64,000 nt of DNA from Candidatus Latescibacterota bacterium (GTDB lineage: Bacteria > Latescibacterota > UBA2968 > UBA8231). The notes beneath the pieces were generated by a model. That model made no database searches, was not told the DNA's origin, and saw only the letters and a program-made list of their open reading frames with translations. Shown here in pieces: positions 37,237-54,311 of the stretch. How positions within the stretch are numbered: the stretch's first letter is position 1; the number at the start of each line of letters is the position of its first letter. The position numbers were made by a program, and so were the translations under genes. The stretch lies in contig CBDCSU010000005.1 of the NCBI GenBank assembly GCA_965221775.1, positions 896,001-960,000 of the forward strand, written 5' to 3'.

Positions 37237-37753
37237 GCGCTGCTACATCGGCCTCGGCTCGAACATGGGGGACCGCCGCCGCACCCTCGAGTCGGCCCTG
37301 GCCGACCTGCATCACCAGCCGGCGATCGAGATCGCCGCCGTCTCCAGCGCCTGGGAGACCTCCCCCGTGGGGCCGGTGGCGCAGGCCGACTACCTCAACG
37401 CCGCCGCGGAGTTGCGGACGACCCTGGAGCCGCGCCGCCTCCTGGAGGTGCTGCAGTCGACCGAAGTCTCCCACGGACGCCGGCGGCGGCAGCGCTGGGG
37501 GCCGCGGACGCTGGACCTGGATCTGCTGCTGGCCGGTGACCGCCGCCTCCAAGAGCCGGGACTGACGGTCCCGCACCCGCGCCTGAGTCAGCGCCGCTTC
37601 GTCCTCGAGCCGCTCCTGGAGATCGCCCCCGACCTGGTCCACCCGGTCAGCGGGGAGCGGCTGGCCGGGGTCCTGGCCGATCTGGCCACGGGAGAGCGGG
37701 TGCGGCGGTCAGGTCCGCTGAGGATCGAGGTAGCCGGGGTGAGCCAGCCCTAG
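37226..37753 (+). CDS. folK: 2-amino-4-hydroxy-6-hydroxymethyldihydropteridine diphosphokinase
   Basis: TTG start overlaps folB. Motifs IGLGSNMGD, YLNAA, WGPRTLDLD and PHPR. Confidence 0.95.
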   Translation: MSAERCYIGLGSNMGDRRRTLESALADLHHQPAIEIAAVSSAWETSPVGPVAQADYLNAAAELRTTLEPRRLLEVLQSTEVSHGRRRRQRWGPRTLDLDLLLAGDRRLQEPGLTVPHPRLSQRRFVLEPLLEIAPDLVHPVSGERLAGVLADLATGERVRRSGPLRIEVAGVSQP

Positions 37754-39384
37754 CGGATCAGCGCCAGACGGCCGGCGCTGGTGGATCCGCCGGTCCGCAG
37801 ACGGACCAGATAGGTGCCCGAGGCCACCCGGCGCCCGGCGTCGTCGCGGCCGTCCCAGACCGCCTCGTGCCGGCCGACGGGCCGTGGTCCGGTCACGAGA
37901 GCGCGCAGCCGCTGCCCGCCGAGAGAGAGAACGCTCAACTCCACCGGTCCCGGCCCGGCCAGCGAGTACGGTATGCGCACCTCGGCGTTGAAGGGGTTCG
38001 GGTAGGCCTCCCCCAGCGTGGACGATGCGGGACCCGCCCCCGGCAGTCCCGCCGCGGCCAGGTTCGTGGAGATCTCGGCGGACAGCTCGAAGCCCCCGCC
38101 CCGGGGCGAGGTGCCCCCGACGATCAGCACCAGGCTGTCGATGCCCGCCGCCTGCGCCTGCCCGCGGTTGCCGGTGAGGCTCACCTCCTCGAGCCGGGAG
38201 GCCCCCGGAGACATGGCGTAGGTCCAGGCGAGAAAGCCGGCCCCCTCTTCTCCCTCGAAATCGATGGCGAGATCTCCGGGCGTGCGGAAGAGGACGTTCA
38301 CCGTGCCCCAGGCATCGGTCAGGGCGAAGGGCAGCCGCTGTTGGGGCAGGGCGTCGTAGTCGAAGGTCCGCACCCTTCGCCCCCCGAGGGCTCCGTAGGC
38401 GAGTCGCGGGTCGTCCGAGGCGTAGTTGGCGGCGACCCACCCGGACCAGGCGTCGACGAAGCGGTCGCCGGAACCGATCCCCTCCAGGGCCCCGTCCACG
38501 CCGGCGATTCCGTTGGCGGGCTCGGAGACCAGGGCGCGGATCAGGTCGGGGCCATGCCTCTCCGCCAGGTAAGCGGCGAAGAGGTAGGTGGCGCCGTAGT
38601 TGCGCGGCGCCCCCTTCCAGGTGGTGAGGGAGGTCTCGGGCCGGTCGAGGAAGGCGGGCACGGCGGCCGGGTCCGCCTCGGGAAAGCCGGCCACCGCCTC
38701 GGCGTAACCGGAGAGGCCCTCGTTCACCCAGTTTTCCTCGTTGCGGTCCGAGCCCCAGTGGAGGAGGTGCTGCAGCTCGTGGGCGAGGGTGCCGCGCGCC
38801 AGGTAGGCCTGGCGGCGCAGGTGGTACTGGCTCAGGTAGAGCAGGTCCCGGCGATACTCGGGCAGGTCGTGAACGGAGACGGCCGGGTCGAAGAAGCCCA
38901 CCAGGTGCGGATCGGCCAGGTCGAGAACGAGGAGGAAGATCTGCTCGTAGCCGTCGACGTCCTCCGCCTCTCCGAAGGCCTCCACCACCAGGTCGTAAAT
39001 GCCGCGGTCCGGGTCGGCGGGGGTGCTGGCCTCGAACAGCGTTGCGAGCTTGTCCACGTCGCTCTGCAGGACCGGCCCCCCCTCGGTGTCCCACTGCGCG
39101 TTCTCGACGAAGACGAAGCAGCGGGTGCCCGCGTAGCGGCAGGTGGCGCGCACCGGGGTCACCGATCCGTAGACCGGGAAGAGCTGCTCCGTGCCCACGG
39201 CGACGGGCGGCGGCTCGGCCTGGCGGGGGGCCGCCGGACGGGCGGCCGGCAGGGGGGGCAAGGCTCCGGACGCCCGCTGCTCGGCGAGCCAGCGGGTGCC
39301 GCACAGGACCGGTTCCGCCGCCTGCGCCAGGGCCGGCGGCAGGACGGCCAGGGCGAGCACGGTCCACCGGCCAGCCGCGGCCAC
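37750..39384 (-). CDS. Secreted HExxH zinc metallopeptidase (M30/MA-like) with FlgD-Ig/T9SS-type C-terminal domain
   Basis: Signal peptide, CGT propeptide-like motif, HELQH...NEG; C-terminal YPNPFN...WDGRD..G..VASGTY. Confidence 0.8.
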   Translation of the reverse strand: MAAAGRWTVLALAVLPPALAQAAEPVLCGTRWLAEQRASGALPPLPAARPAAPRQAEPPPVAVGTEQLFPVYGSVTPVRATCRYAGTRCFVFVENAQWDTEGGPVLQSDVDKLATLFEASTPADPDRGIYDLVVEAFGEAEDVDGYEQIFLLVLDLADPHLVGFFDPAVSVHDLPEYRRDLLYLSQYHLRRQAYLARGTLAHELQHLLHWGSDRNEENWVNEGLSGYAEAVAGFPEADPAAVPAFLDRPETSLTTWKGAPRNYGATYLFAAYLAERHGPDLIRALVSEPANGIAGVDGALEGIGSGDRFVDAWSGWVAANYASDDPRLAYGALGGRRVRTFDYDALPQQRLPFALTDAWGTVNVLFRTPGDLAIDFEGEEGAGFLAWTYAMSPGASRLEEVSLTGNRGQAQAAGIDSLVLIVGGTSPRGGGFELSAEISTNLAAAGLPGAGPASSTLGEAYPNPFNAEVRIPYSLAGPGPVELSVLSLGGQRLRALVTGPRPVGRHEAVWDGRDDAGRRVASGTYLVRLRTGGSTSAGRLALIR

Positions 39385-39387
39385 GCC

Positions 39388-43900: not shown

Positions 43901-44065
43901 GGCCGCCTGCCGCGCCGTGAGCTCGAGGCCGTCGTGGTAGAGCACGCGGAAGTGCTCGCTCTCCAGCGTCCGCCAGGTGAGCTCGGGGTGGTTCTGGGCC
44001 GGCGCCGGGGACCCCGCCGCCAGGGCTCCCACCACGATCCAGGCGAGGAAGCCCCGGGCGCTCAC
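40937..44065 (-). CDS. Outer-membrane protein: HExxH peptidase-like domain, TolB-like (PD40) propeller, BamA/TamA-like C-terminal barrel
   Basis: HELVH...WFAEG; SPDG repeats; LGG...MRGY Omp85-like motif; GTG overlaps the upstream stop. Confidence 0.72.
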   Translation of the reverse strand: MSARGFLAWIVVGALAAGSPAPAQNHPELTWRTLESEHFRVLYHDGLELTARQAAEVAEAAYGPVTRLYGYRPSGPVRIILKDYDDYSNGAAFFYHDAIEVWITPLEHDYELRGTSDWLRNVITHELVHIVSLGAARKGPQRVPAAFLEYFAYKPESERDDILTGAPDRLALVPLANTVLPMWFAEGVAQHQMEEVRHDRWDSHRDMVLRTAVLDGTLLSLDDMGVFGKPGFENEFVYDHGYGLVRYLAATYGDSSLAEICDQMGRWTATDIDGPLHAVTGRSADQVWRDWRDSMAARYEAQVAALGELREGERLTGKGHSNTRAVYAPDGARLAYLSTLGRRYGPHFLVLRDLHSGEDEVVAGGVASVPDWFPDGESLLFVRKEKADRYGSRRADLFEHDLTGPERSWPGRLLWTLPVLTGVYAPKDPRTLRMSRGLRALYPAVSPDGQSIAFVRLGPAGAALGLADRDGSGVRYLFEFDDGTQLYTPRWSPDGRWLALSYGSGGSRDIALVDPNGEGPVPPRLQPLIASAGTDRDPSWSPEGELLFVSDVSGIFNVYARDPTSGAVEQVTNVRGGAFFPTANDAGDVVYSGYGGDGFHLYRIDRSGAEPVDSAIFTPPAAAAAAPGLPPLPAPESPLAAARSSGTEILRTTVMPRLTHDEGYAKVGAYVATGDALDRQSIFGSLSMAPGNGDRDIYGEYRFRGFRPTVRLSFIHLKRHSARGDSSEARDFFIRGMNFSLNRLTLGARGQLNRASSLALSLAYDRYDASLENDQLFPRRDGRPGFERVPGKPVGYTYLHGFDLALTYRHDSLPRRVDREINPRGGRRLYLRYDRMHNWFIEGFDEENISFLQEEYKRLFYNQLTLDWREYLALPGDTALGLRAYGGWIFSDSVDDELVGGFFDFHLGGLPYMRGYTYYSIEGRKAAMANATFRFPLLPRLRQRLGLLYLHRVHGAVYGDLGKAWDEDLGGPDPMYGREGPLRDAGLQLRVDGVSFYSLPTRLEIDLAYGIDEVEEKEPWKLYLTLLFNYLNWFDSGSDFTR

Positions 44066-47046
44066 CGGCTCACCGCCAGGCGCACGGTGGCCTCGCCGCG
44101 GCTGCCGTCGTCGCCGCGCGCCTCCAGCCGGCAGAGGTAGAGGCCGCTGGCGTAGCCGCGGACCGACCAGGTGATCTCGTTCGCCTCCGCCGCTCTGACC
44201 CCGTCCGCCTCCAGGCGTTCCACCACTTCCCCCATGGCGTCGTGGACCGTGAGGGTGACGCGGGCCGGCCGGGCGACGAAGAACCGCACGTGGGCCGATT
44301 CCTCGCCTCCGGCCGGGTTCGGGTAGCAGTAGGCCCGGGAGGCGGGCAGCAGGTCGAGGTCCTCCGGCGGCGGAGGAGGCTCCACCGCGGAGGGGTGGGT
44401 CCGCTGGCCGGAGGCCGAGCCGCCGGGCTGGGACCAGCCGGTCGGCAGACCCGCGGCAAAGGCCGGGTCCCAGGAGACCGGGCGCCACAGGTTCAGCCCT
44501 TCTCCGTCGCCCACTGCCAGATCCAGACCGCCATCCCCGTCGAAGTCGACCAGGACCGGCGCCGTCGCGGGGATGGCCGGGGAGGCGACGGGGAACCCGG
44601 ACAGGGGCACGGCGCTTCCATCGAGTCCGTGTACGCCGTTGCCGGCGGAGACGAAGATCTCGGGCACGCCGTCGGCGTCCAGGTCTGCCGCCACGACTTC
44701 GCCGAGGAGTGGTCCCGACTCCTGGTGCATCGGCGGCGCCACGGGGAAGCCGGGACTTCGCAGGCCGGCCGCCGACCAGGCGTGCACCGCCTCCGCCGTG
44801 GGGACCAGGATCTCGAGCTGCCCGTCGCCGTCGAGATCGGCGAAGGAGGCAGCCGCCATGTTGGGGGCTCCGGAGGAGACCTGCAGGTCGCCGGCCCCCT
44901 GGCCGAAGCTGCGGAGCCGTCCGTCGCTGTCGGCGAGAACGAGGTCGGCGAGACCGTCGCCGTCGAGGTCGGCCGCCGAGGGCGGCAGCCCGAAGCCGGA
45001 CAGACCGCCGATCGACACGGCGGCCTCCGTCCCGTCGTAGCGGAGCAACTCGCCCGGGCCCAGGACCAGCAGCTCCTCGGCGCCGTCGCCGTCCCTGTCG
45101 GCGGCGGCCATCCCCAGGACCGGGGCCTCGTGAGTGAAGCGCAACTCTCCGGTGGCCGCGTCGAGGACGGACAGGCCCTGGGGCCCGCCCACCGCGAGGA
45201 CCGCGCCCCGGCCGGCGAGATCGGCCGCGTACAGGGCGTGGGAGGGCCGTCCCTCCAGTTGCGTCTCCCAGGCGGGACCGCCGCCGAGAGGCCGGGCCGC
45301 GACCCGACCCGCGGCCGAGCGGGTGAAGAGCAGTCCTTCGGCGGCGGCCAGCAGCACCTCGTCGACGGGTGGCCCGTCCGCCGCGGACGGCGCCAGCACG
45401 CGGACCCCGTCCTCGCCCTCGGCCAGCAGCTCCGGGCGTCCGTCGCCGTCGACGTCCGCGGCCTGCAGCCGGCGCACGCCTGCCAGGGGGCGCGGCCAGC
45501 CGGCGGCGCTGCGGGTGAAGCGGAGACTCACCGACATGCGGTCGTCGAGCCCGGAGAGGACCTCGACCTCCAGGCCGGAGACCAGCCCGGTGTGGGTCAC
45601 GGTGGCCGGAGCCGTGTCCGCGCCGAAGCGGCTGACGCCGGTGATGTCGGGCCCAGGCCCGGGAGCGCGACCGGCGAAGAACGGTGTCCAACGGGTCCCC
45701 TCGACGAACTCCTGGCGGTCGAAGTAGGGGTTGCCGATGTCGCGGGAACCGTCGGCCTCCACCAGCATCAGTCCAGGCCGCTCGCGCTCGTTGTTGATGC
45801 CCTCCGCCGGGGCGGCGGCGATGACGGCCTCGTCCACGTGCCAGATCAGCACACCCGATCCCGGGACGAAGGCGTCGTACTCGTCCGCCTGGAGCCAGAC
45901 TCCGGCGCCGCGGCCGGCGAGGGAATCCGACTCGGCCGCCGTGATCCGGTGCGACAGTTCCGCCTCGCCGGCCTCGATCCAGGCGAACTCGCCCGAGATG
46001 GGCGCCTCGACCCCGGGGGGCAGGTCGTGCTCGGTGAGGCCCCGCTGCTGGCGGTTCTCCAGGAGCAGGTACTCCGTCGGCGACAGGGGGACGCGCACAG
46101 CGTGGACCTCCCCGCCGCCATCCGCCGGCCGGTCCCCGGCGAGGATCTGCACGACCGTGTCGCGGCGAACCTCCAGGGGCTCGATCCACCCGAGGCGGGC
46201 CTTGCTCCAGGCCATGGGATGGGGGGGCACCATGCCGACGACGAACTCCAGCTTGTCCCCGACGCGGACGAAGCCGCTGCGGTTGACTCCCACGTCCATC
46301 AGGCTCCAGCCGCCGACGGCGGGCAGCCCGCGCGCGAAGTTCGACAGGCCGGGCAGGCCGAGCTGATGGCCGAAGAACTTGGCCAGGAGACCGTTGAGCC
46401 CCCCAACCCCTCTGAAGTCGACGGCCTCCGGCAGGATCCAGGCCTCGCGGATCACCGCCCCGCCCGCCTCCACCGGCCCGCCGTGCTCGTCCAGGTCTTC
46501 AGGCCGCAGGAAGACGGAACGGATGTCGTTCAGCTGGCCGGTCTCGTGGCCGCGGCCGGCGTGGATGATCAGATAGCTGTTGAAGGCGGCGAAGTCGGGT
46601 CCGTCGGGATCGGCGGCGGCCAGGTCGACGGCGTCGACGATCAGCTCGCGCCAGAGACGGCCGATCTCCTCGGGCGAGCGGCCGTTGCCGTACGACAGGG
46701 CCGATCTGGGCAGGGTGTAGGCCTCCTCGAGAGCGCTGGGATAGACGCTGGACTCGATGCGCACCCGGCCCTGGGAGACGACGTCGTAGTAGCGGGCCAG
46801 CGCCTCGAGGTGGTGCTCGAAGTGGACCCGGTCGTGAGGCGGGGTGTCGTACGGCTGCGTGTAGTCGGGAAGGGCCTCGGCCAGGCTGCGCAGGTCGAAG
46901 CCGCCGCGCCCGGTGGTGGTCGGCTCGTCGGGCTCCTCGACAGGGAAGTCGACGCGCAGGGCCAGAATGCGCCAGTCCTCGACCTTCTGGGCTCCACTGG
47001 GAACCGCCAGGAGAAGAGGGACGATCCGGCACAGGAGCGAAGTCAG
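44062..47046 (-). CDS. M6 (InhA)-like metallopeptidase homolog with degenerate active site, FG-GAP repeats and T9SS-type CTD (start uncertain)
   Basis: ILALRVDF, IIHAG, GGWSLMD.G, AWSK..LGW, EYLLLENRQ and GVLIWHVD; DxDGDG repeats; YPNP...SGLY CTD. No canonical start codon near the signal peptide. Confidence 0.72.
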   Translation of the reverse strand: MTSLLCRIVPLLLAVPSGAQKVEDWRILALRVDFPVEEPDEPTTTGRGGFDLRSLAEALPDYTQPYDTPPHDRVHFEHHLEALARYYDVVSQGRVRIESSVYPSALEEAYTLPRSALSYGNGRSPEEIGRLWRELIVDAVDLAAADPDGPDFAAFNSYLIIHAGRGHETGQLNDIRSVFLRPEDLDEHGGPVEAGGAVIREAWILPEAVDFRGVGGLNGLLAKFFGHQLGLPGLSNFARGLPAVGGWSLMDVGVNRSGFVRVGDKLEFVVGMVPPHPMAWSKARLGWIEPLEVRRDTVVQILAGDRPADGGGEVHAVRVPLSPTEYLLLENRQQRGLTEHDLPPGVEAPISGEFAWIEAGEAELSHRITAAESDSLAGRGAGVWLQADEYDAFVPGSGVLIWHVDEAVIAAAPAEGINNERERPGLMLVEADGSRDIGNPYFDRQEFVEGTRWTPFFAGRAPGPGPDITGVSRFGADTAPATVTHTGLVSGLEVEVLSGLDDRMSVSLRFTRSAAGWPRPLAGVRRLQAADVDGDGRPELLAEGEDGVRVLAPSAADGPPVDEVLLAAAEGLLFTRSAAGRVAARPLGGGPAWETQLEGRPSHALYAADLAGRGAVLAVGGPQGLSVLDAATGELRFTHEAPVLGMAAADRDGDGAEELLVLGPGELLRYDGTEAAVSIGGLSGFGLPPSAADLDGDGLADLVLADSDGRLRSFGQGAGDLQVSSGAPNMAAASFADLDGDGQLEILVPTAEAVHAWSAAGLRSPGFPVAPPMHQESGPLLGEVVAADLDADGVPEIFVSAGNGVHGLDGSAVPLSGFPVASPAIPATAPVLVDFDGDGGLDLAVGDGEGLNLWRPVSWDPAFAAGLPTGWSQPGGSASGQRTHPSAVEPPPPPEDLDLLPASRAYCYPNPAGGEESAHVRFFVARPARVTLTVHDAMGEVVERLEADGVRAAEANEITWSVRGYASGLYLCRLEARGDDGSRGEATVRLAVSR

Positions 47047-47114
47047 CTGCCGGGCGCACGAACCCGCCCGGCGGCCGAGACGCCCTTCGGGTGTCCGCCG
47101 GCCGCGCTTTGGCT

Positions 47115-48170
47115 TCAGAAGTACAGGTTCAGCGAGAATCGCGTGCTGTCCTGGAGGGGCGTGTCTTCGCCGGTCACGTAGGCCACGTCGACCTGCAGCA
47201 TGGTGTACTTGAGGCCCAGGCCGAAGGTCGGGGACTGGAGCTCGCCGTCGTAGTCGAGGGAGTACCCGGCGCGCAGGGCCAGGAAGGACTCGTCCTTGAC
47301 CGCGGAGAGGCCGTAGCGGTACTCGCCGCCGGCGTGTAGATCCATCTCCTTGAACTCGTTGCCCAGGGGCTCGTCGACCCAGGCGGTGACCAGGCTCTGG
47401 GCGAAGTGCCCGTCGTCGATGAGAGGCTTGTACACGTCGGCCGACAGCAGCACGCTGTGGTACTCCGTCTCCATGAGGTCGTAGGCGGCGCCGACGACGA
47501 TGTGCTGGGGCAGGGGGTCGGCCTGCCGCGGGTCGATGTAGTTGATCTTGGGCCCGAGGTTGCGCAGCGCCGCACCGAAGGTCAGGGCCGGGGTGGCGCG
47601 CCACAGGAGCCCGAGATCGGCCGCGAAGCTGCTGCCCGTGCCCTTGCCGCGCTCGATCCCGGCGCCCTGGTCGGCCAGGTGGCTGCGGATGAACTTGAGC
47701 CCGATCCCCGCGGCGAGGTTGTCGCCGACGTCGGCGCCGTAGGCCCCGGAGAAGGCGAGATCATAGCTGGAGAACGTGCCCAGCACCTCGCTTCGCTCCC
47801 CGGTGCGGATCTGCTCGCCCAGATTCATCAGGGTGCCGTGGAGGCCGACGTTCCCCCAGCCCTCGAGGGGCTGCGAATAGGCCAGGAACTCGTAGGACAT
47901 GTCGTCGGCCAGGCCGGGGAGCCACTTCTGGTGGGTGAAGTTGAGCTTGCGTTGCCCCTGCCCGGCCAGCGCTGCCGGGTTGAAGTAGGTCGCCGTGGCG
48001 TCGTCGGCGATGGCCACGTAGGTCTCCCCCATGCCGCTGGCGCGGGCCCCGGGCTTGATGAGCAGGAACAGCACCGCGGCCCGGCTCTCGGGGGTGGCCG
48101 AGACGCGTTCGGTCGTACTTGCCAGGCAGGCCAGCGCCGCCAGGGCGGCGATCATCCGTCGAGTCGTCAC
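47115..48170 (-). CDS. porV: PorV-family outer-membrane protein
   Basis: GGAGG RBS; FLLIKPGARASGMGE..VA.ADDA...YFNPA.L; KWLPGL..D; terminal Phe; follows porU. Confidence 0.8.
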   Translation of the reverse strand: MTTRRMIAALAALACLASTTERVSATPESRAAVLFLLIKPGARASGMGETYVAIADDATATYFNPAALAGQGQRKLNFTHQKWLPGLADDMSYEFLAYSQPLEGWGNVGLHGTLMNLGEQIRTGERSEVLGTFSSYDLAFSGAYGADVGDNLAAGIGLKFIRSHLADQGAGIERGKGTGSSFAADLGLLWRATPALTFGAALRNLGPKINYIDPRQADPLPQHIVVGAAYDLMETEYHSVLLSADVYKPLIDDGHFAQSLVTAWVDEPLGNEFKEMDLHAGGEYRYGLSAVKDESFLALRAGYSLDYDGELQSPTFGLGLKYTMLQVDVAYVTGEDTPLQDSTRFSLNLYF

Positions 48171-48255: not shown

Positions 48256-51200
48256 TCAGGGCGCCACCTGGATCCGCCCGTCGGCCTCCCGGGGAGACCC
48301 CTCGCCGAGGCGGGCGGAGACTCGGAACAGGTAGGTTCCACCCGCCAGCTCCGGGGGGGACCAGGGAACCTGGTTGAATCCCTCCTCCACCCCTCCCTCG
48401 AGGCGGTCCACCTCTCGTCCCGAGAGGGCGTAGACCCGAATGTCGACGCTCTCGGCCGGAGCGGCCAGGACATAGGTGAAGTGCCCACTGCCGTCGGAGG
48501 TCGGGTTCGGATGGAACAGGACCTCGTCGAGGGCCGTATCCGCCCCCTCGGTCACCACCAGGTCGGCCTCGGCGATGGAAGAGTTGTTGAAGGCGTCCCA
48601 GGCCTTGAGACGGACGGTGTGGTCTCCGGGTTCCAACTCCCCCAGGGGATACTCCAGGATTCCCTGGCGGTGGTCGCCCAGACTCGTGTAGAACCGGGTG
48701 ACCGCGGTCACGGCCTCGTCGACCCACAGCTCGATCTCGTGGCCCGTCTCGCCGGTGATGTTGATGCCGCTCGGATCCGCCAGGCGGGCGGCGAGGACCG
48801 GACGACGCGAGATCCGGTCTCCGCTGCGGAACCGGGGCTTGCCGGCGAAGGCCAGCTCGATGACCGGACCCTCCTCGTCCGCCACCACGTCCGAGGCGGT
48901 ACCCGACAGGGCCAGACCGGAGCGAGCCCCGAAGGCCGGCGGCGCCCCGTTGGAGCTCGTCACGTAGGCGCTCGCCCGACCCTGCGAGGCCCGGTAGGTG
49001 ATGTCCTTGGGGATGCGCAGCCGGGTTTGAAAGCGGCCTCCCTCGACCGGCACGAGGCCCCGGAACAGGGGCGCACCAAGTTTCTCGTACGAGATCCCCT
49101 CGATCAGGCTCTGCGCCGAGGAGTCGAAGAGCCGCACGAGGGCATGGCCTTCGTGGTCCGTCTTCGGCCGGCCCTCGGCGTCGACGACGGTGCCCCTCAC
49201 CTCCAGTTCCATCAGGGCCTCCATCGAGTCGGGCAGGTCGAGGGCCACGCCTACTCGGGGCCGAGCCAGGCGCTGCGCCGCGTCCCCGAAGAGGGAGTAG
49301 CGCTGGATGTTGGTGCGCCACAGGTCGCTCACGTGGACCTGCTTGGCCTCCATCAGGGCCAACCCCAGGGGCACGTGTTCCCTGCCGCTGTGGTACATCT
49401 GGTGGTGGAACTGGAGAGCCAGCACCATGTTGCTGCTGTGGTAGCCGACACGAGTGGCCGAGATGAAACCGATCACCCCGCGGTCGGGCATCTTCAGGAA
49501 GGCCTCGGGCATCGAGTCCTGCGCCGGGTCGTCGAAGACCCCCACGGCGCTCGCCGCGGTGTAGACGAAGGGCAGCCGGCCGCCGTTGTCGATGCGCCCC
49601 ACGTCGCGGTTGAGCAGGAAGAGGTGCTCGTGGGCCAGGACCTCGGGGTGGCCGTGCCCGATGTAGGTCAGGATCAGCGCGCCCTCGTTGAAGAGGCGCA
49701 GGAACTCCTCCCTGGCCTGGGGCTTGGTGCGGCCTTCGAGAGGGTATGCGCCGATGTAGAACTTGGTCATGTCGAGGTCACTCGGCATGCCGTTTCGGGC
49801 AACCCTCTCCGCGTCGTGGACGAAGAAGCTCTCCTTGCGCTGCGGAAACTCGGGGTTCGAGACATCGTCGGCCACGAGCAGGATCCGGGTCTGCCAGGGC
49901 CCCGGCTCGGGTGTCTGGTCGTAGCGCAGGATCTTGTCCACCACCCCGTCGGCCTCGGCGGCGGACTGCACCGGAATGCGGGAGACCGCCAGGTCGGGGA
50001 TCCTGTCAATGCCCTCCACCCTGGCGTACCACTCGTCGTAGGTGCTCGGGCCGTCCTGGAAGGGGGGGATCCAGTTCGTGTGACTGAGGCCGGAGTTGTT
50101 CTTGTAGTCGTAGGTCCCGTCGCCCAGGAGAGTGACGTACACGGGCGGGACCGGCCATCTGCGGACGGCCTGGGCCAGGAAGATCCGGATCGCCGCCGGG
50201 TCCAGCAGCCCCCCGGAGAACTCGTCGTAGATATCCTGCACGTCCACGACCATGGTCTTCAAGGGCGGGCCGAAACGGTCGTCCTCGGCGCGCCAGTCGG
50301 CCAGCCGCCGCGCGGCCGAGGCGAACTCGGCATGGGTGATGATCACGTACTCGGCACCCTCCGGACCGCGGGGAGTCTGCACGTCCCTCACCACCGCCGC
50401 CGGGCGCTTCCACCGTCCTGGTTGAAGGGCGATGTATCTGCGCGGCTGCGGCCTGGCAGCCCAGTCCCGGAAGGTCAGCACGCCGTCGGCGGCGTGCTCC
50501 AGGCCCCCCAGCTCCCGCATGCCCCTGGAGACCTCGAAGACCCTGGGCGCACCGTCGGCCGCGGGGAACCCTTCCACCCGGAACTCCAGCACCGACCCGG
50601 CCTGGGCATTTCCCCCGGCCCCGTCCCCCCGGCCCGGTCCGTTGAACCGGATCTCTCCGCCCAGGGCCTTCAGGCGGCGGACATACTCCACCTCGTACCA
50701 GTCCAGTCGAATGGGGGCCGAGGACCGGTGAAACAGCCCCAGCTGGTTGAGCCCCTCCTGGGCTTCATCCGCGCGTACCTCGATCGTGTGCGGTCTGGAT
50801 GTCCTGAAGGAGAACCGGCCCAGGTTGTCGCCGTTCCAGCGCAGCTCGAAGGCCTGGGAGGTGTTCTTGGACCCCTTGAAGTGCACCCTAGCGAGGACGG
50901 GGATCTCCGGCAGCGCGTCGTCGACGACGAAGGTGAAGTTGCGGGCGTTGCCTGCGAACTCTTCCCAGAACCACTCGTACCCCGAACTGGCCCCATTCAA
51001 CTGAAAGGCGATCAGGTGATCGTCCTCCTCGTGGAGACGCACCCGGTAGCGGTCGACGACTGCGAAGGGAGCACCGCCGGGGCCGGATCCCTCGCTGGCA
51101 CGGAGACCGTCCACGTCACCGTAGAGGTCGATCCAGTACACGTTGTCCTTCGTGTAGGGGTTCTTCTGCCAGACGAAGCCGGGGCCGGTTTTCCACACCC

Positions 51201-52035
51201 ACCGCTCCGGTCCCACGCCATAGAACAGGATGTGGTCCTCCCCGTCGAAGCGGCCGTCGCCGCCGGACTCCACGACTGACGCCACCGTCCGCAGGGACGG
51301 GCCGGACGGTATGCCGCTGGTTATCCCGATGGCCCAACCGCCGCCGTACAGGAGGCGGATCCGGGCCGGGTCGACGCCCTCGAGATCGGCCCCCGCCTGC
51401 TCCAGGTCAGCAGCCGTCACCCGGTAGATCCCCTCGCCGCGAACCTCGACCCGGAACATCCCGGTCCGGGGAGTCACCGCCGGGGCCGCCGGTCTCGCTG
51501 CCGCGGGCCTCGGCTGCCGCCATCGGCGGGCCTGCTCGTAGTTGAGGATGGTCGCCCGGTAGGATGTCTCGAAGGCGTCCGGCCGGGGCGGCCGGCCCGG
51601 GTCCTGGGCGAACCGGACCTCCACCAGGACGCTGTCGTAGATGACGGCCGACCCGTCCGCGTTCCGACGGGGCCCGAAGGCGAGTGTCACGACCCGCTGG
51701 TGGCGCAGCATCGCCGGGGGCTCCAGGCGTGCAGGGCCGTCCGGCGGCGCGTCCTCCGGCACCTCGGCGAGGGTGGTTGTGCCGGCCTCCCGGGCCGCCA
51801 GAACCTCCAGTTCCGCCTGTCCCTGGAGGGGCACGCCGAGAAGGGCCGAGTCCACGAACCGGTGGAGGGGCGGCGCCGCCAGCGAGTCCGCGAGCCCAGG
51901 TCCCTCGTAGAGGACGCGGGCGAAACCCGGGCCGGCGGCGACGAGGCGAACCTCCGCGGAGAGGGTGGACGCCGCCGCCGCAAGGACCGCGATCCCGAAT
52001 CTTGCCGTTCGGTGACAGAGATGGGGGCGATGCAA
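48256..52035 (-). CDS. porU: PorU-like C25 (gingipain-family) sortase with own CTD; catalytic Cys position is Ser
   Basis: IYDEFSGG, LLGDGTYDYK, YIGHG, RLPFVYTAAS, YSLFGD, SGINITGETGH, LKAWDAFNNSS and HPNP CTD. Start is TTG 52035 or up to 52131. Confidence 0.82.
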   Translation of the reverse strand: MHRPHLCHRTARFGIAVLAAAASTLSAEVRLVAAGPGFARVLYEGPGLADSLAAPPLHRFVDSALLGVPLQGQAELEVLAAREAGTTTLAEVPEDAPPDGPARLEPPAMLRHQRVVTLAFGPRRNADGSAVIYDSVLVEVRFAQDPGRPPRPDAFETSYRATILNYEQARRWRQPRPAAARPAAPAVTPRTGMFRVEVRGEGIYRVTAADLEQAGADLEGVDPARIRLLYGGGWAIGITSGIPSGPSLRTVASVVESGGDGRFDGEDHILFYGVGPERWVWKTGPGFVWQKNPYTKDNVYWIDLYGDVDGLRASEGSGPGGAPFAVVDRYRVRLHEEDDHLIAFQLNGASSGYEWFWEEFAGNARNFTFVVDDALPEIPVLARVHFKGSKNTSQAFELRWNGDNLGRFSFRTSRPHTIEVRADEAQEGLNQLGLFHRSSAPIRLDWYEVEYVRRLKALGGEIRFNGPGRGDGAGGNAQAGSVLEFRVEGFPAADGAPRVFEVSRGMRELGGLEHAADGVLTFRDWAARPQPRRYIALQPGRWKRPAAVVRDVQTPRGPEGAEYVIITHAEFASAARRLADWRAEDDRFGPPLKTMVVDVQDIYDEFSGGLLDPAAIRIFLAQAVRRWPVPPVYVTLLGDGTYDYKNNSGLSHTNWIPPFQDGPSTYDEWYARVEGIDRIPDLAVSRIPVQSAAEADGVVDKILRYDQTPEPGPWQTRILLVADDVSNPEFPQRKESFFVHDAERVARNGMPSDLDMTKFYIGAYPLEGRTKPQAREEFLRLFNEGALILTYIGHGHPEVLAHEHLFLLNRDVGRIDNGGRLPFVYTAASAVGVFDDPAQDSMPEAFLKMPDRGVIGFISATRVGYHSSNMVLALQFHHQMYHSGREHVPLGLALMEAKQVHVSDLWRTNIQRYSLFGDAAQRLARPRVGVALDLPDSMEALMELEVRGTVVDAEGRPKTDHEGHALVRLFDSSAQSLIEGISYEKLGAPLFRGLVPVEGGRFQTRLRIPKDITYRASQGRASAYVTSSNGAPPAFGARSGLALSGTASDVVADEEGPVIELAFAGKPRFRSGDRISRRPVLAARLADPSGINITGETGHEIELWVDEAVTAVTRFYTSLGDHRQGILEYPLGELEPGDHTVRLKAWDAFNNSSIAEADLVVTEGADTALDEVLFHPNPTSDGSGHFTYVLAAPAESVDIRVYALSGREVDRLEGGVEEGFNQVPWSPPELAGGTYLFRVSARLGEGSPREADGRIQVAP

Positions 52036-52155
52036 CCGCAGGTGAGCGCTCTCGAGTCGGTTCAGCCGGTGGGGACCTTCTTGGGCTTCAGATAGAGAAG
52101 CCTGAGAAGCATGAGAAGTTCCCTCTGCCACCCTGGACTGTCAAGGCCTGCCGGG

Positions 52156-52217: not shown

Positions 52218-52445
52218 ATGGCCAGGGTCTGTCAGGTCTCCGGCAAACGCCGAATGGCGGGCAACAACGTCAGCCACTCGCAACGCAAGACCAAGCGCGT
52301 TCAGCGCCCCAATCTCATCAAGAAGCGCATCTACATCCCCGAGGAAGGCCGCACGGTCACCCTCCGGCTGTCGGCGCGGGCCCTTCGCACCATGAACAAG
52401 AAGGGTGTCCTCAAGTACCTCAAGGAGCAGGGCGTCCGGGTCTGA
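52218..52445 (+). CDS. rpmB: 50S ribosomal protein L28
   Basis: MARVCQVSGK..MAGNNVSHS..KTKR...PN. Confidence 0.96.
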   Translation: MARVCQVSGKRRMAGNNVSHSQRKTKRVQRPNLIKKRIYIPEEGRTVTLRLSARALRTMNKKGVLKYLKEQGVRV

Positions 52446-52458
52446 GCGGGGATTCGCA

Positions 52459-53706
52459 GTGACCACCGCGTCCGCCTCGGCCGCCGGACCCGCCCTCCTC
52501 GGCGGCGCCCCCCTCCGATCCGATCCGTTCCCGTCCTGGCCCGTCTTCGGCGCCGAGGACGAGTCCGCGATCCTCGAGGTCCTGCGCTCCGGGAGCTGGT
52601 TTCTCGGCGACCGCGTCGCCGAGATCGAGCGCCGGTTCCCTCGCTTCCACCAGGCACGGCACGGAATCGCCGTCAGCAGCGGCACGGCGGCCCTGCAGGT
52701 GGCCCTGGAGGCCGCCGGCGTCCGCCTCGGGGACGAGGTGATCGTCCCCTCCTACACCTTCGTCGCCACCGCCGCCTCCGTCGCCCTCGTGGGGGCGGTG
52801 CCCGTCTTCGTCGACGTCGACCCCGCCACATACTGCATCGATCCGGACTCCGTCGAAGCCGCTGTCACGGAGCGTACCCGCGCCGTCGTCGCCGTCCACT
52901 TCGCCGGCCAGCCGGCCGACCTCGACGCCTTGGCCCGGCACTGCCGGTCCCGCGGCATCGTTCTGATCGAGGATGCCGCGCAGGCGCACTGCGCCGAGTG
53001 GCGAAACCGCCGCGTCGGCGCCATCGGCGATCTCGGCACCTTCAGCTTCCAGGCCAGCAAGAATCTCAACGCCGGCGAGGGCGGCTTCATCCTCAGCGAC
53101 GACGACGATCTGGCCGAGGCCGCCTGGTCGATCCACAACTGCGGGCGCACCCGCACCGGCGCCTGGTACGAGCATGCCCTCGTGGGGGGCAACTACCGCA
53201 TGTCCGAGTTCCAGGCGGCCCTGCTCCTCAGCCAGATGCGCAACCTCGAGGACCAGAGCCTGCTGCGATCCCGCAACGCGGCCCTCCTGGCCGAGCGGCT
53301 GTCCGAGATCGAGGGGATCCGCCCCCTCGACGTGGACGCGCGCGTCAGCCGCCACGCCTACCACTTGTTCGTCTTCCGTTACGACCCAGCCGCCTTCGCC
53401 GGCGTGTCCAGGGAGCGCTTCCTGGAAGCCCTGAGCGCCGAGGGCATCCCCTGCGCCTCCGGGTACAGACCTCTCTACCGCGAGCCGGCCTTCCAGGCCC
53501 GCTTCCGCGATTACCCTCTGGACTCCCCCGCCTTCGGCGGACGCCCGGACTACTCCACCGTGAACCACCCCGTCACGGAGCGCATCTGCGCCGAGGAGGC
53601 GGTCTGGCTCACCCAGAACCTGCTCCTCGGCAGCGAGGAGGACACGGCCGGCATCGCCGAGGCGGTCGCCAAGATCCAGCAGCACGCCCACCGGCTGGCC
53701 GACTAG
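52459..53706 (+). CDS. DegT/DnrJ/EryC1/StrS PLP aminotransferase (AHBA synthase/BtrR-like)
   Basis: SGTAAL, IEDAAQAH, FSFQASKNLNAGEGG and NYRMSE. Confidence 0.9.
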   Translation: MTTASASAAGPALLGGAPLRSDPFPSWPVFGAEDESAILEVLRSGSWFLGDRVAEIERRFPRFHQARHGIAVSSGTAALQVALEAAGVRLGDEVIVPSYTFVATAASVALVGAVPVFVDVDPATYCIDPDSVEAAVTERTRAVVAVHFAGQPADLDALARHCRSRGIVLIEDAAQAHCAEWRNRRVGAIGDLGTFSFQASKNLNAGEGGFILSDDDDLAEAAWSIHNCGRTRTGAWYEHALVGGNYRMSEFQAALLLSQMRNLEDQSLLRSRNAALLAERLSEIEGIRPLDVDARVSRHAYHLFVFRYDPAAFAGVSRERFLEALSAEGIPCASGYRPLYREPAFQARFRDYPLDSPAFGGRPDYSTVNHPVTERICAEEAVWLTQNLLLGSEEDTAGIAEAVAKIQQHAHRLAD

Positions 53707-53723: not shown

Positions 53724-54029
53724 CTACCGGGTCAGCCTCTCGATCTCGTGCTGCACCCGTTCCTCCCGGATCTGGTCGATCACCTCCTGGAAGGACTTCG
53801 CCGTACCGCTCACCACGAGCCTCTCGATGGCGTGGACCTCATCCTCGGTGTACCACCCCGAGTCCCTTACGCGCGCCACGTACGCGAGTCGGTCCTCGAT
53901 GGGGAGACGGGCGATGGCTCCCAGCCTCTCGAACAGCTTGTACGCCGCCTCGCTCTCGAGGCAGCGTTCGACGACGGCGGCGAGCCTCTCCTCGCGGCCG
54001 GGCGTCTGCGGGGTATCGATCGTTTCCAC
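53724..54029 (-). CDS. Hypothetical 101-aa helical protein
   Basis: GTG start after AGAGG; protein-like composition. Confidence 0.6.
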   Translation of the reverse strand: METIDTPQTPGREERLAAVVERCLESEAAYKLFERLGAIARLPIEDRLAYVARVRDSGWYTEDEVHAIERLVVSGTAKSFQEVIDQIREERVQHEIERLTR

Positions 54030-54311
54030 GGTCGTCCTCTCTTCGACAGGGGTCCGAAGGACTGGCTCCCTGGCTCCCATGCAATGCCCGGGCCGGACCG
54101 TGGAAAAGCCCGTGAGAGAGTGCCGCAAGTACCATATTTTACTGCCCCTTGGAGACACTTCCCCCGAGAGGGTATGGCAGGGCTCGAGGTGGGCCGGACC
54201 GGAACAATCCGGACCTCGAGGGGAAGGAATTTCCCCCCGGGGCCGGCTGTCCGGATCGCTGGCCCCCCGCTATCTTCTGGTGCCCCGAGCCCGGACCTGG
54301 AGCGGTGAGAG

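Follow-up and report, generated by a model that had tools for sequence, protein, structure and literature searches.

Can PorU, which is the sortase in type IX secretion systems (T9SS), work with a serine in place of its catalytic cysteine? The question is raised by a porU gene on the minus strand of a 64,000-nucleotide stretch of DNA from a Candidatus Latescibacterota bacterium (hereafter the window; positions 896,001 to 960,000 of contig CBDCSU010000005.1, assembly GCA_965221775.1; G+C content 71%), the product of which carries Ser861 at the nucleophile position, where every relative studied so far has the catalytic cysteine. Clan CD, which includes caspases, metacaspases, legumain, separase, gingipains, and PorU, consists of textbook cysteine enzymes. 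A sequence-only reading of the window had offered two options for this protein: either it is a transpeptidase with a serine nucleophile on a caspase-like fold, or it is a scaffold that has lost its activity. These are the two readings that survived the present analysis. The new evidence leans towards the active enzyme over the scaffold, and we propose that the protein is probably a working PorU with a Ser-His(-Asp) acyl-transfer site, in which the hydroxyl of Ser861 would take the place of the thiol nucleophile. Coordinates are positions in the window unless another contig or locus is named, and residue numbers are those of the 1291-amino acid open reading frame (ORF).

The porU ORF (48256..52131, minus strand; stop codon 48256-48258) matched the NCBIfam profile of the T9SS sortase PorU (NF033707) with 579.4 bits, well over the required 420, and covered model positions 7-1078 of 1095, and by this measure its product is a full-length PorU. 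The probable start is the TTG codon of residue 33 (52035, minus strand), in agreement with a database gene call of 1259 amino acids (P0002). Reading by eye, we predict a signal peptide at residues 33-59 (M/LHRPHLCHRTARFGIAVLAAAASTLSA; 51955..52035, minus strand), in which the single cysteine of the ORF, residue 39, is located, leaving the mature protein free of cysteine. The Peptidase_C25 catalytic domain (Pfam PF01364, E 1.4e-78) occupies residues 595-955 (49267..50349, minus strand). Residues 1208-1273 (48313..48510, minus strand) may form an immunoglobulin domain like the C-terminal domain (CTD) of T9SS cargo; the profile matches of this region were sub-threshold (TIGR04183, 16.6-21.9 bits where 23 are required; FlgD_ig, 18.7 against 27), and phmmer aligned it to the C-terminal part of the Porphyromonas gingivalis PorU chain 6za2.

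The minus-strand reading of 49400-49800 contains TYIGHGHPEVLAHEHLFLLNRDVGRIDNGGRLPFVYTAASAVGVFDD, with YIGHGHPEV upstream of RLPFVYTAASAVGVFDD. In the phmmer comparison with 6za2 (E 1.2e-56), residues 586-1244 were aligned with chain positions 397-1099, laying the query TAAS861 over TATC688 of the chain and GHG over GHG; the catalytic cysteine of P. gingivalis PorU is numbered C690 in PMC5121618. When a profile of 45 homologues was aligned with RgpB (1cvr), the serine column fell on chain index 244 and the histidine column on index 211. Both alignments confirmed the by-eye placing of Ser861 (AGC, 49549..49551, minus strand) at the position of the catalytic cysteine. The histidine of the GHG motif, which the sequence-only reading had described as intact, is His826 (CAC, 49654..49656, minus strand), aligned with the catalytic histidines of both PorU and RgpB.

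AGC is one base from TGC, and a cysteine codon might have been misread or misassembled, or have mutated in this strain only. This explanation was refuted by three independent metagenome assemblies and by the homologues, and we give it practically no weight. Contigs from three DNA runs in three studies (X4, X5, and X6) span 48800-50300 with 6-8 differences each; the differences hit neither the His826 nor the Ser861 codon, and AGC was read in all three. The runs containing this stretch are labelled as sponge or marine metagenomes. A metatranscriptome contig (X17), which may derive from DNA carry-over, covers 49277-49620 with the serine codon unchanged. Furthermore, every one of the 121 sequences recovered in the first homologue search, at an identity of at least 61%, carried both the serine and the histidine, and the family's orthologues and paralogues, as far as they were examined, all used AGC or AGT. 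The sequence-only reading had considered that reads or close orthologues might carry TGC; AGY was found in both. It had also considered that another cysteine might occupy the active site. No point in support of such a substitute nucleophile elsewhere in PorU was found, and the explanation, equally close to nil in our estimate, was refuted for this protein: the sole cysteine (C39) lies in the signal peptide, and 49 of the 121 homologues are free of cysteine beyond residue 40, making a conserved cysteine column impossible. Even when combined, the artefact and the substitute cysteine are extremely improbable.

Arg894 (49450..49452, minus strand), which lies in ATRV aligned on TTRV of 6za2, is the equivalent of P. 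gingivalis Arg722, described as a PorU-specific conserved arginine 32 residues past the cysteine (Gorasia 2015, PMC4560394). Its conservation was 100% among Ser-clade and 95% among Cys-clade sequences. The strand LLVADD ends in Asp755-Asp756 (49864..49869, minus strand), our candidate for an acid orienting His826; the pair was present in 100% of Ser- and Cys-type PorUs and missing from a long C25 paralogue considered below. RgpB index 152 fell one residue after this pair in the profile alignment, and we take Glu152 to be the third catalytic residue of RgpB. Asp755 or Asp756 may orient His826 in a Ser-His-Asp arrangement.

If the serine had ended catalysis, Ser-PorU would be a dead protein kept for its structural role, or for binding cargo, within the PorV/PorZ attachment complex, and the CTD would be removed by another enzyme or not at all. 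A comparison of 146 canonical Cys-type domains with 94 Ser-type domains bears on this alternative. Among 53 columns conserved at 85% or more in Cys-type PorUs, 48 were retained by the Ser-type domains, among them D755, D756, E835, N849, D867, E876, R894, and N901; the altered columns were C861S, N822T, Y796F, I648 (77% conserved), and a single column with a gap. A860, F770, H898, G896, P875, G800, and R944 were invariant in the Ser clade only, position 770 being invariably Phe (100%) in these sequences versus His in 74% of Cys-type PorUs. The His826 column was His in 310 of 310 C25 domains. The active site of the Ser clade showed no relaxation, and this pattern of conservation argues against active-site decay.

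The predicted structure was in keeping with a clan CD fold. The AlphaFold model of residues 586-960, with a predicted local distance difference test score of 91.5 and a predicted template modelling score of 0.92, was assessed by its secondary-structure positions only. In the model, His826, Ser861, and Arg894 each lie just past one of three parallel strands, His826 directly after strand 235-239 and Ser861 two residues after strand 270-274. The modelled fold and topology fit clan CD, in which His and the nucleophile, here Ser, would stand at the C-terminal ends of neighbouring strands. Foldseek with the catalytic-domain model returned RgpB (4ief and 1cvr) as the best matches (E ~6e-19, template modelling score 0.77), followed by Kgp and then PorU 6za2.

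The homologue sets overlap, some genes having been reached by several routes. Among 150 representatives of 50%-identity clusters, realigned with MAFFT, 133 had Cys and 13 had Ser, and four did not cover the site. Among 80 named species-level loci, which are the best 80 of the genome-contig scan, 62 had the His/Ser/Arg combination, 16 had Cys, and two were truncated. The record titles of the 62 Ser loci are those of Latescibacterota or Latescibacteria and Gemmatimonadetes or Gemmatimonadota, with a few others, and the 16 Cys loci include other metagenome-assembled genomes titled Latescibacterota, together with Calditrichota, TA06, and KSB1. The serine codon of the 62 loci was AGC in 30 and AGT in 32; the Cys loci used TGC or TGT.

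A tree of the 310 C25 domains (FastTree, LG+gamma, midpoint-rooted) was used to trace the residue at site 861, which was Cys in 161 domains and Ser in 149, with no other state. All 149 Ser sequences belonged to one clade of 154 tips (support 1.0) with a total branch length of 22.3 substitutions per site. That Ser and Cys are the only states over about 22 substitutions per site suggests selection at site 861. The remaining five tips of this clade are Cys sequences nested in two groups. P0128, P0268, and P0269 (TAACAVGQ; support 1.0; two sources) form a Cys group in a basal subgroup of the Ser clade, and P0272 (TAACQVG) and P0279 (TATCQVG) stand beside Ser sequences deep in a clade of 147 tips (support 1.0). 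Fitch parsimony required four changes with Cys as the root state, indicating one switch from Cys to Ser and at least two returns to Cys. Where the serine was replaced, it was always by cysteine, which arose at least twice, and this speaks against a dead scaffold. Four of the five forms that reverted to Cys (P0128, P0268, P0269, and P0279) have GHS instead of GHG after the catalytic histidine, and P0279 again has Thr before the Cys (ATC), like canonical Cys-type PorUs; these changes may represent co-variation with the nucleophile.

A further line of evidence came from the secretion systems in which Ser-PorUs occur. The T9SS context of the source genome (5.36 Mb in 6 contigs) was judged from SprA, the PorV family, and CTD-bearing cargo. 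SprA was matched with 612 bits, and 67 matches to TIGR04183 and five matches to the PorV family exceeded the cut-offs. SprA was present in all 41 genomes sampled in the class to which the window belongs. The source genome encodes a second Ser-type PorU on contig C4 (L035:6501-10178, minus strand; 1228 amino acids, GAASQLG), which matched NF033707 with 542 bits. It directly follows, with an overlap of a few bases, a PorZ-like gene (L035:10174-12399, minus strand; NF052228, 132 of the required 260 bits). The two Ser-PorUs of the source genome pair with PorV and with PorZ, respectively.

Fifteen single-chromosome genomes, reached through the named Ser loci and of unstated completeness, were searched for C25 proteins. 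In 14 of them exactly one Peptidase_C25 match was found, a Ser-PorU. Five of these genomes with a sole Ser-PorU were tested, and all had SprA and 49-93 CTD matches; these results weigh against the dead scaffold. The exception among the 15, genome G047, has two extra divergent long C25-like ORFs of 2256 and 2467 amino acids (C1:4505066-4506178, L126; C1:3542102-3544666, L127 and L128). L126 has Val at the position of the GHG histidine (GVS) and keeps the Cys (APTCELG), representing a different active-site variant.

Taking these results together, the restriction of site 861 to Ser and Cys, the returns to Cys, the untouched His, Asp, and Arg residues, and the occurrence of T9SS genomes that are rich in cargo and have no C25 protein besides Ser-PorU are best fitted by a working serine nucleophile. 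In P. gingivalis, C690A PorU is used as an inactive mutant and is counted among the secretion-deficient mutants (PMC5121618), suggesting that a dead PorU is costly in the canonical system.

Several observations weigh against a catalytic serine, and they led us to retain the dead scaffold as a possible, rather less probable, explanation. The first is the long PorU-like C25 paralogue of the source genome (contig C6:2097696-2103632, L034:5696-11629, plus strand), a protein of 1978 amino acids with His and Cys (ALSCLNG), which would be the candidate for removing the CTD if Ser-PorU were dead. Of the 25 genomes sampled in the window's family, 24 encode a long His/Cys paralogue of this kind (~1900 amino acids) in addition to Ser-PorUs; the exception, G016, is 78% complete. 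Among 16 T9SS-bearing genomes of the sister families, all with SprA, 15 had the long form and no other C25 protein, and G028 had none. The long Cys paralogue may therefore be a working CTD peptidase. The C6 protein, however, was below the cut-off for both PorU profiles (239 against 420 and 204 against 450 bits), carries a large insertion, and has metabolic genes and no T9SS genes as neighbours, and the long Cys paralogues lack residues conserved in PorU, having Ala at the R894 position, a gap at E835, and N/W at D755/D756.

The second is precedent within and around clan CD. In metacaspase MCA4, the histidine is kept, Cys is replaced by Ser, the protein is inactive, and the S219C change reactivates it (PMC3220528); SERA5 (PMC4671257) and pseudo-orthocaspases (PMC6426788) are further precedents. 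Within the porU cassette itself, the M6-like partner without an HExxH motif indicates that dead-protease scaffolds occur in this system. In addition, Ser and Cys are isosteric, and variation between these two residues alone could reflect packing instead of chemistry. The nested Cys forms are known from protein sequences alone, without DNA or taxon; a P0128-type locus was absent among the best 80 genome-contig loci, the nearest being 46% identical. Finally, the sequence-only reading had suggested that selection for serine would be revealed by its being encoded by both AGY and TCN codons. This signature did not appear: a TCN codon was found in none of the 62 species-level loci, nor in a set of 50 AGC and 50 AGT sequences in which some genes occur twice, and selection was seen in the other ways described above.

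We propose the following sequence of events for a working Ser-PorU. PorV would pass CTD-bearing cargo to PorU, and His826, probably oriented by Asp755 or Asp756, would deprotonate Ser861. Ser861 would then attack the peptide bond preceding the CTD, resulting in an acyl-enzyme ester, versus the thioester of Cys-type PorU. This ester may be resolved by an amine acceptor, leading to attachment at the cell surface, or by water, leading to release. At the level of the lineage, we consider it somewhat better than an even chance that the whole group runs its T9SS sortase on a clan CD Ser-His(-Asp) site, the change from Cys to Ser having occurred once and the reverse at least twice while the remainder of the site stayed as it was, and that both chemistries work on one scaffold.

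The genes around porU were consistent with a T9SS locus. A gene for a PorV-family outer-membrane beta-barrel protein (47115..48155, minus strand) lies 100 nucleotides downstream of porU; its ORF extends to 48488, and the probable start is the Met at ORF residue 112. It matched NF033709 (PorV_fam) with 244 bits against a cut-off of 90, NF033710 with 153 bits against 250, and the Pfam PorV family at 9e-17. The third gene of the porU-porV-M6-like cassette (44062..47604, minus strand), the true start of which is probably downstream of the porV stop codon, encodes a homologue of M6-like metalloproteases that carries FG-GAP repeats and has, like PorU, a C-terminus resembling a CTD. It matched TIGR03296, and NF052323 with 264.3 bits against a cut-off of 600; a search of this protein for the HExxH motif returned none. 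It resembles the NCBIfam family named 'T9SS-dependent M6-like inactivated metalloprotease', with a score below the cut-off. The order porU-porV-M6-like recurs in most main-type Ser loci and in the Cys-type relatives L085, L086, L093, L109, and L114, indicating that the cassette is older than the change from Cys to Ser. Membership in the PorU2/PorV2/M6i trio, to which the gene order is alike, was considered and rejected, the scores for PorU2 (NF052324, 113.9 bits against 450), PorV2 (NF052325, 47.6 against 325), and M6i (the NF052323 score given above) indicating that the proteins are not trio members.

Divergent from porU is a gene for a DegT/PseC-type sugar aminotransferase (52405..53706, plus strand), the best NCBIfam matches of which were all below the cut-off. 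A role for this enzyme as the maker of an amino-sugar serving as the amine acceptor was considered; it is speculative, and the association is not strong enough to rely on, since of 102 loci searched only 20 gave a tblastn match upstream of PorU. A 144-amino acid ORF without a Pfam or NCBIfam family match (53724-54158, minus strand) is conserved upstream of porU in many relatives at 45-60% identity (tblastn). Elsewhere in the window, a 545-amino acid ORF (37750-39387, minus strand) with a weak match to MXAN_6640-type HExxH metalloproteases and a sub-threshold T9SS CTD match (21.6 bits against 23) probably encodes another T9SS cargo protein.

In full-text literature searches, which did not cover the PorU structure paper (PNAS 2021), neither a Ser-type PorU nor a T9SS in Latescibacterota was found described. 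The Ser-bearing proteins currently carry the database names 'type IX secretion system sortase PorU' or 'C25 family cysteine peptidase', and the serine is thus relevant to annotation under cysteine-peptidase and sortase names. If the proposed chemistry is correct, Ser-PorU would mark the first natural use of a serine nucleophile by a peptidase or transpeptidase of the caspase-hemoglobinase fold and would widen the mechanistic definition of clan CD. It would also bear on how an ester, as opposed to a thioester, affects the attachment versus the release of T9SS cargo, and it would provide an oxidation-insensitive sortase-like scaffold. If Ser-PorU is instead inactive, its host organisms would operate a T9SS that has abundant cargo and lacks a C25 signal peptidase, overturning the current model of T9SS cargo processing. 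The deep, species-rich Ser-PorU clade and its cargo-rich genomes make a direct test of serine in a caspase-fold site possible.

Among known systems, P. gingivalis PorU (PG0026; PDB 6za2; MEROPS C25) is similar in its full-length architecture, in the GHG histidine, in the arginine equivalent to R894 (Arg722), in the neighbouring porV, and in the SprA and CTD cargo found in the source genome. It differs in having Cys690 where Ser861 stands here, preceded by Thr instead of Ala. Asn822 of Cys types is replaced by Thr, and Phe770, together with His898, Gly896, and Pro875, which are invariant only in the Ser clade, further separates the protein from P. gingivalis PorU and other Cys types. The lineage, titled Latescibacterota/Gemmatimonadota, is not Bacteroidota.

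The gingipains RgpB and Kgp (C25; 1cvr, 4ief, and 4rbm) were the top structural matches to the modelled domain, and His826 and Ser861 fell on RgpB chain indices 211 and 244. They differ in being secreted cargo proteases with a Cys nucleophile, and identity was just 16-18%; they also lack the PorU-specific arginine, according to Gorasia 2015 (PMC4560394). The long Cys C25 proteins of the same class (~1900-2000 amino acids) resemble PorU in their N-terminal domains, the C25 domain with its His and Cys, and the C-terminal immunoglobulin/CTD-like domain, with NF033707 positions 6-735 matched and positions 873-1094 also matched in relatives; they differ in forming a separate clade (support 1.0) and in the absence of R894, E835, and D755/D756.

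Natural replacement of a catalytic cysteine by serine has been linked to loss of activity. SERA5 has Ser596 in place of Cys, and this protein and the cyanobacterial pseudo-orthocaspases are described as non-enzymatic or presumably inactive (PMC4671257 and PMC6426788). Trypanosoma brucei MCA4 (clan CD, C14B) shares with Ser-PorU the caspase-hemoglobinase fold, the retained histidine, and the natural change from Cys to Ser; it is the sole tested Ser variant of this fold and was shown to be dead, and it occurs alongside active Cys paralogues, by which it is processed (PMC3220528). Ser-PorU differs from MCA4 in often being the sole family member of its genome, in being fixed over a deep clade, and in having returned to Cys at least twice.

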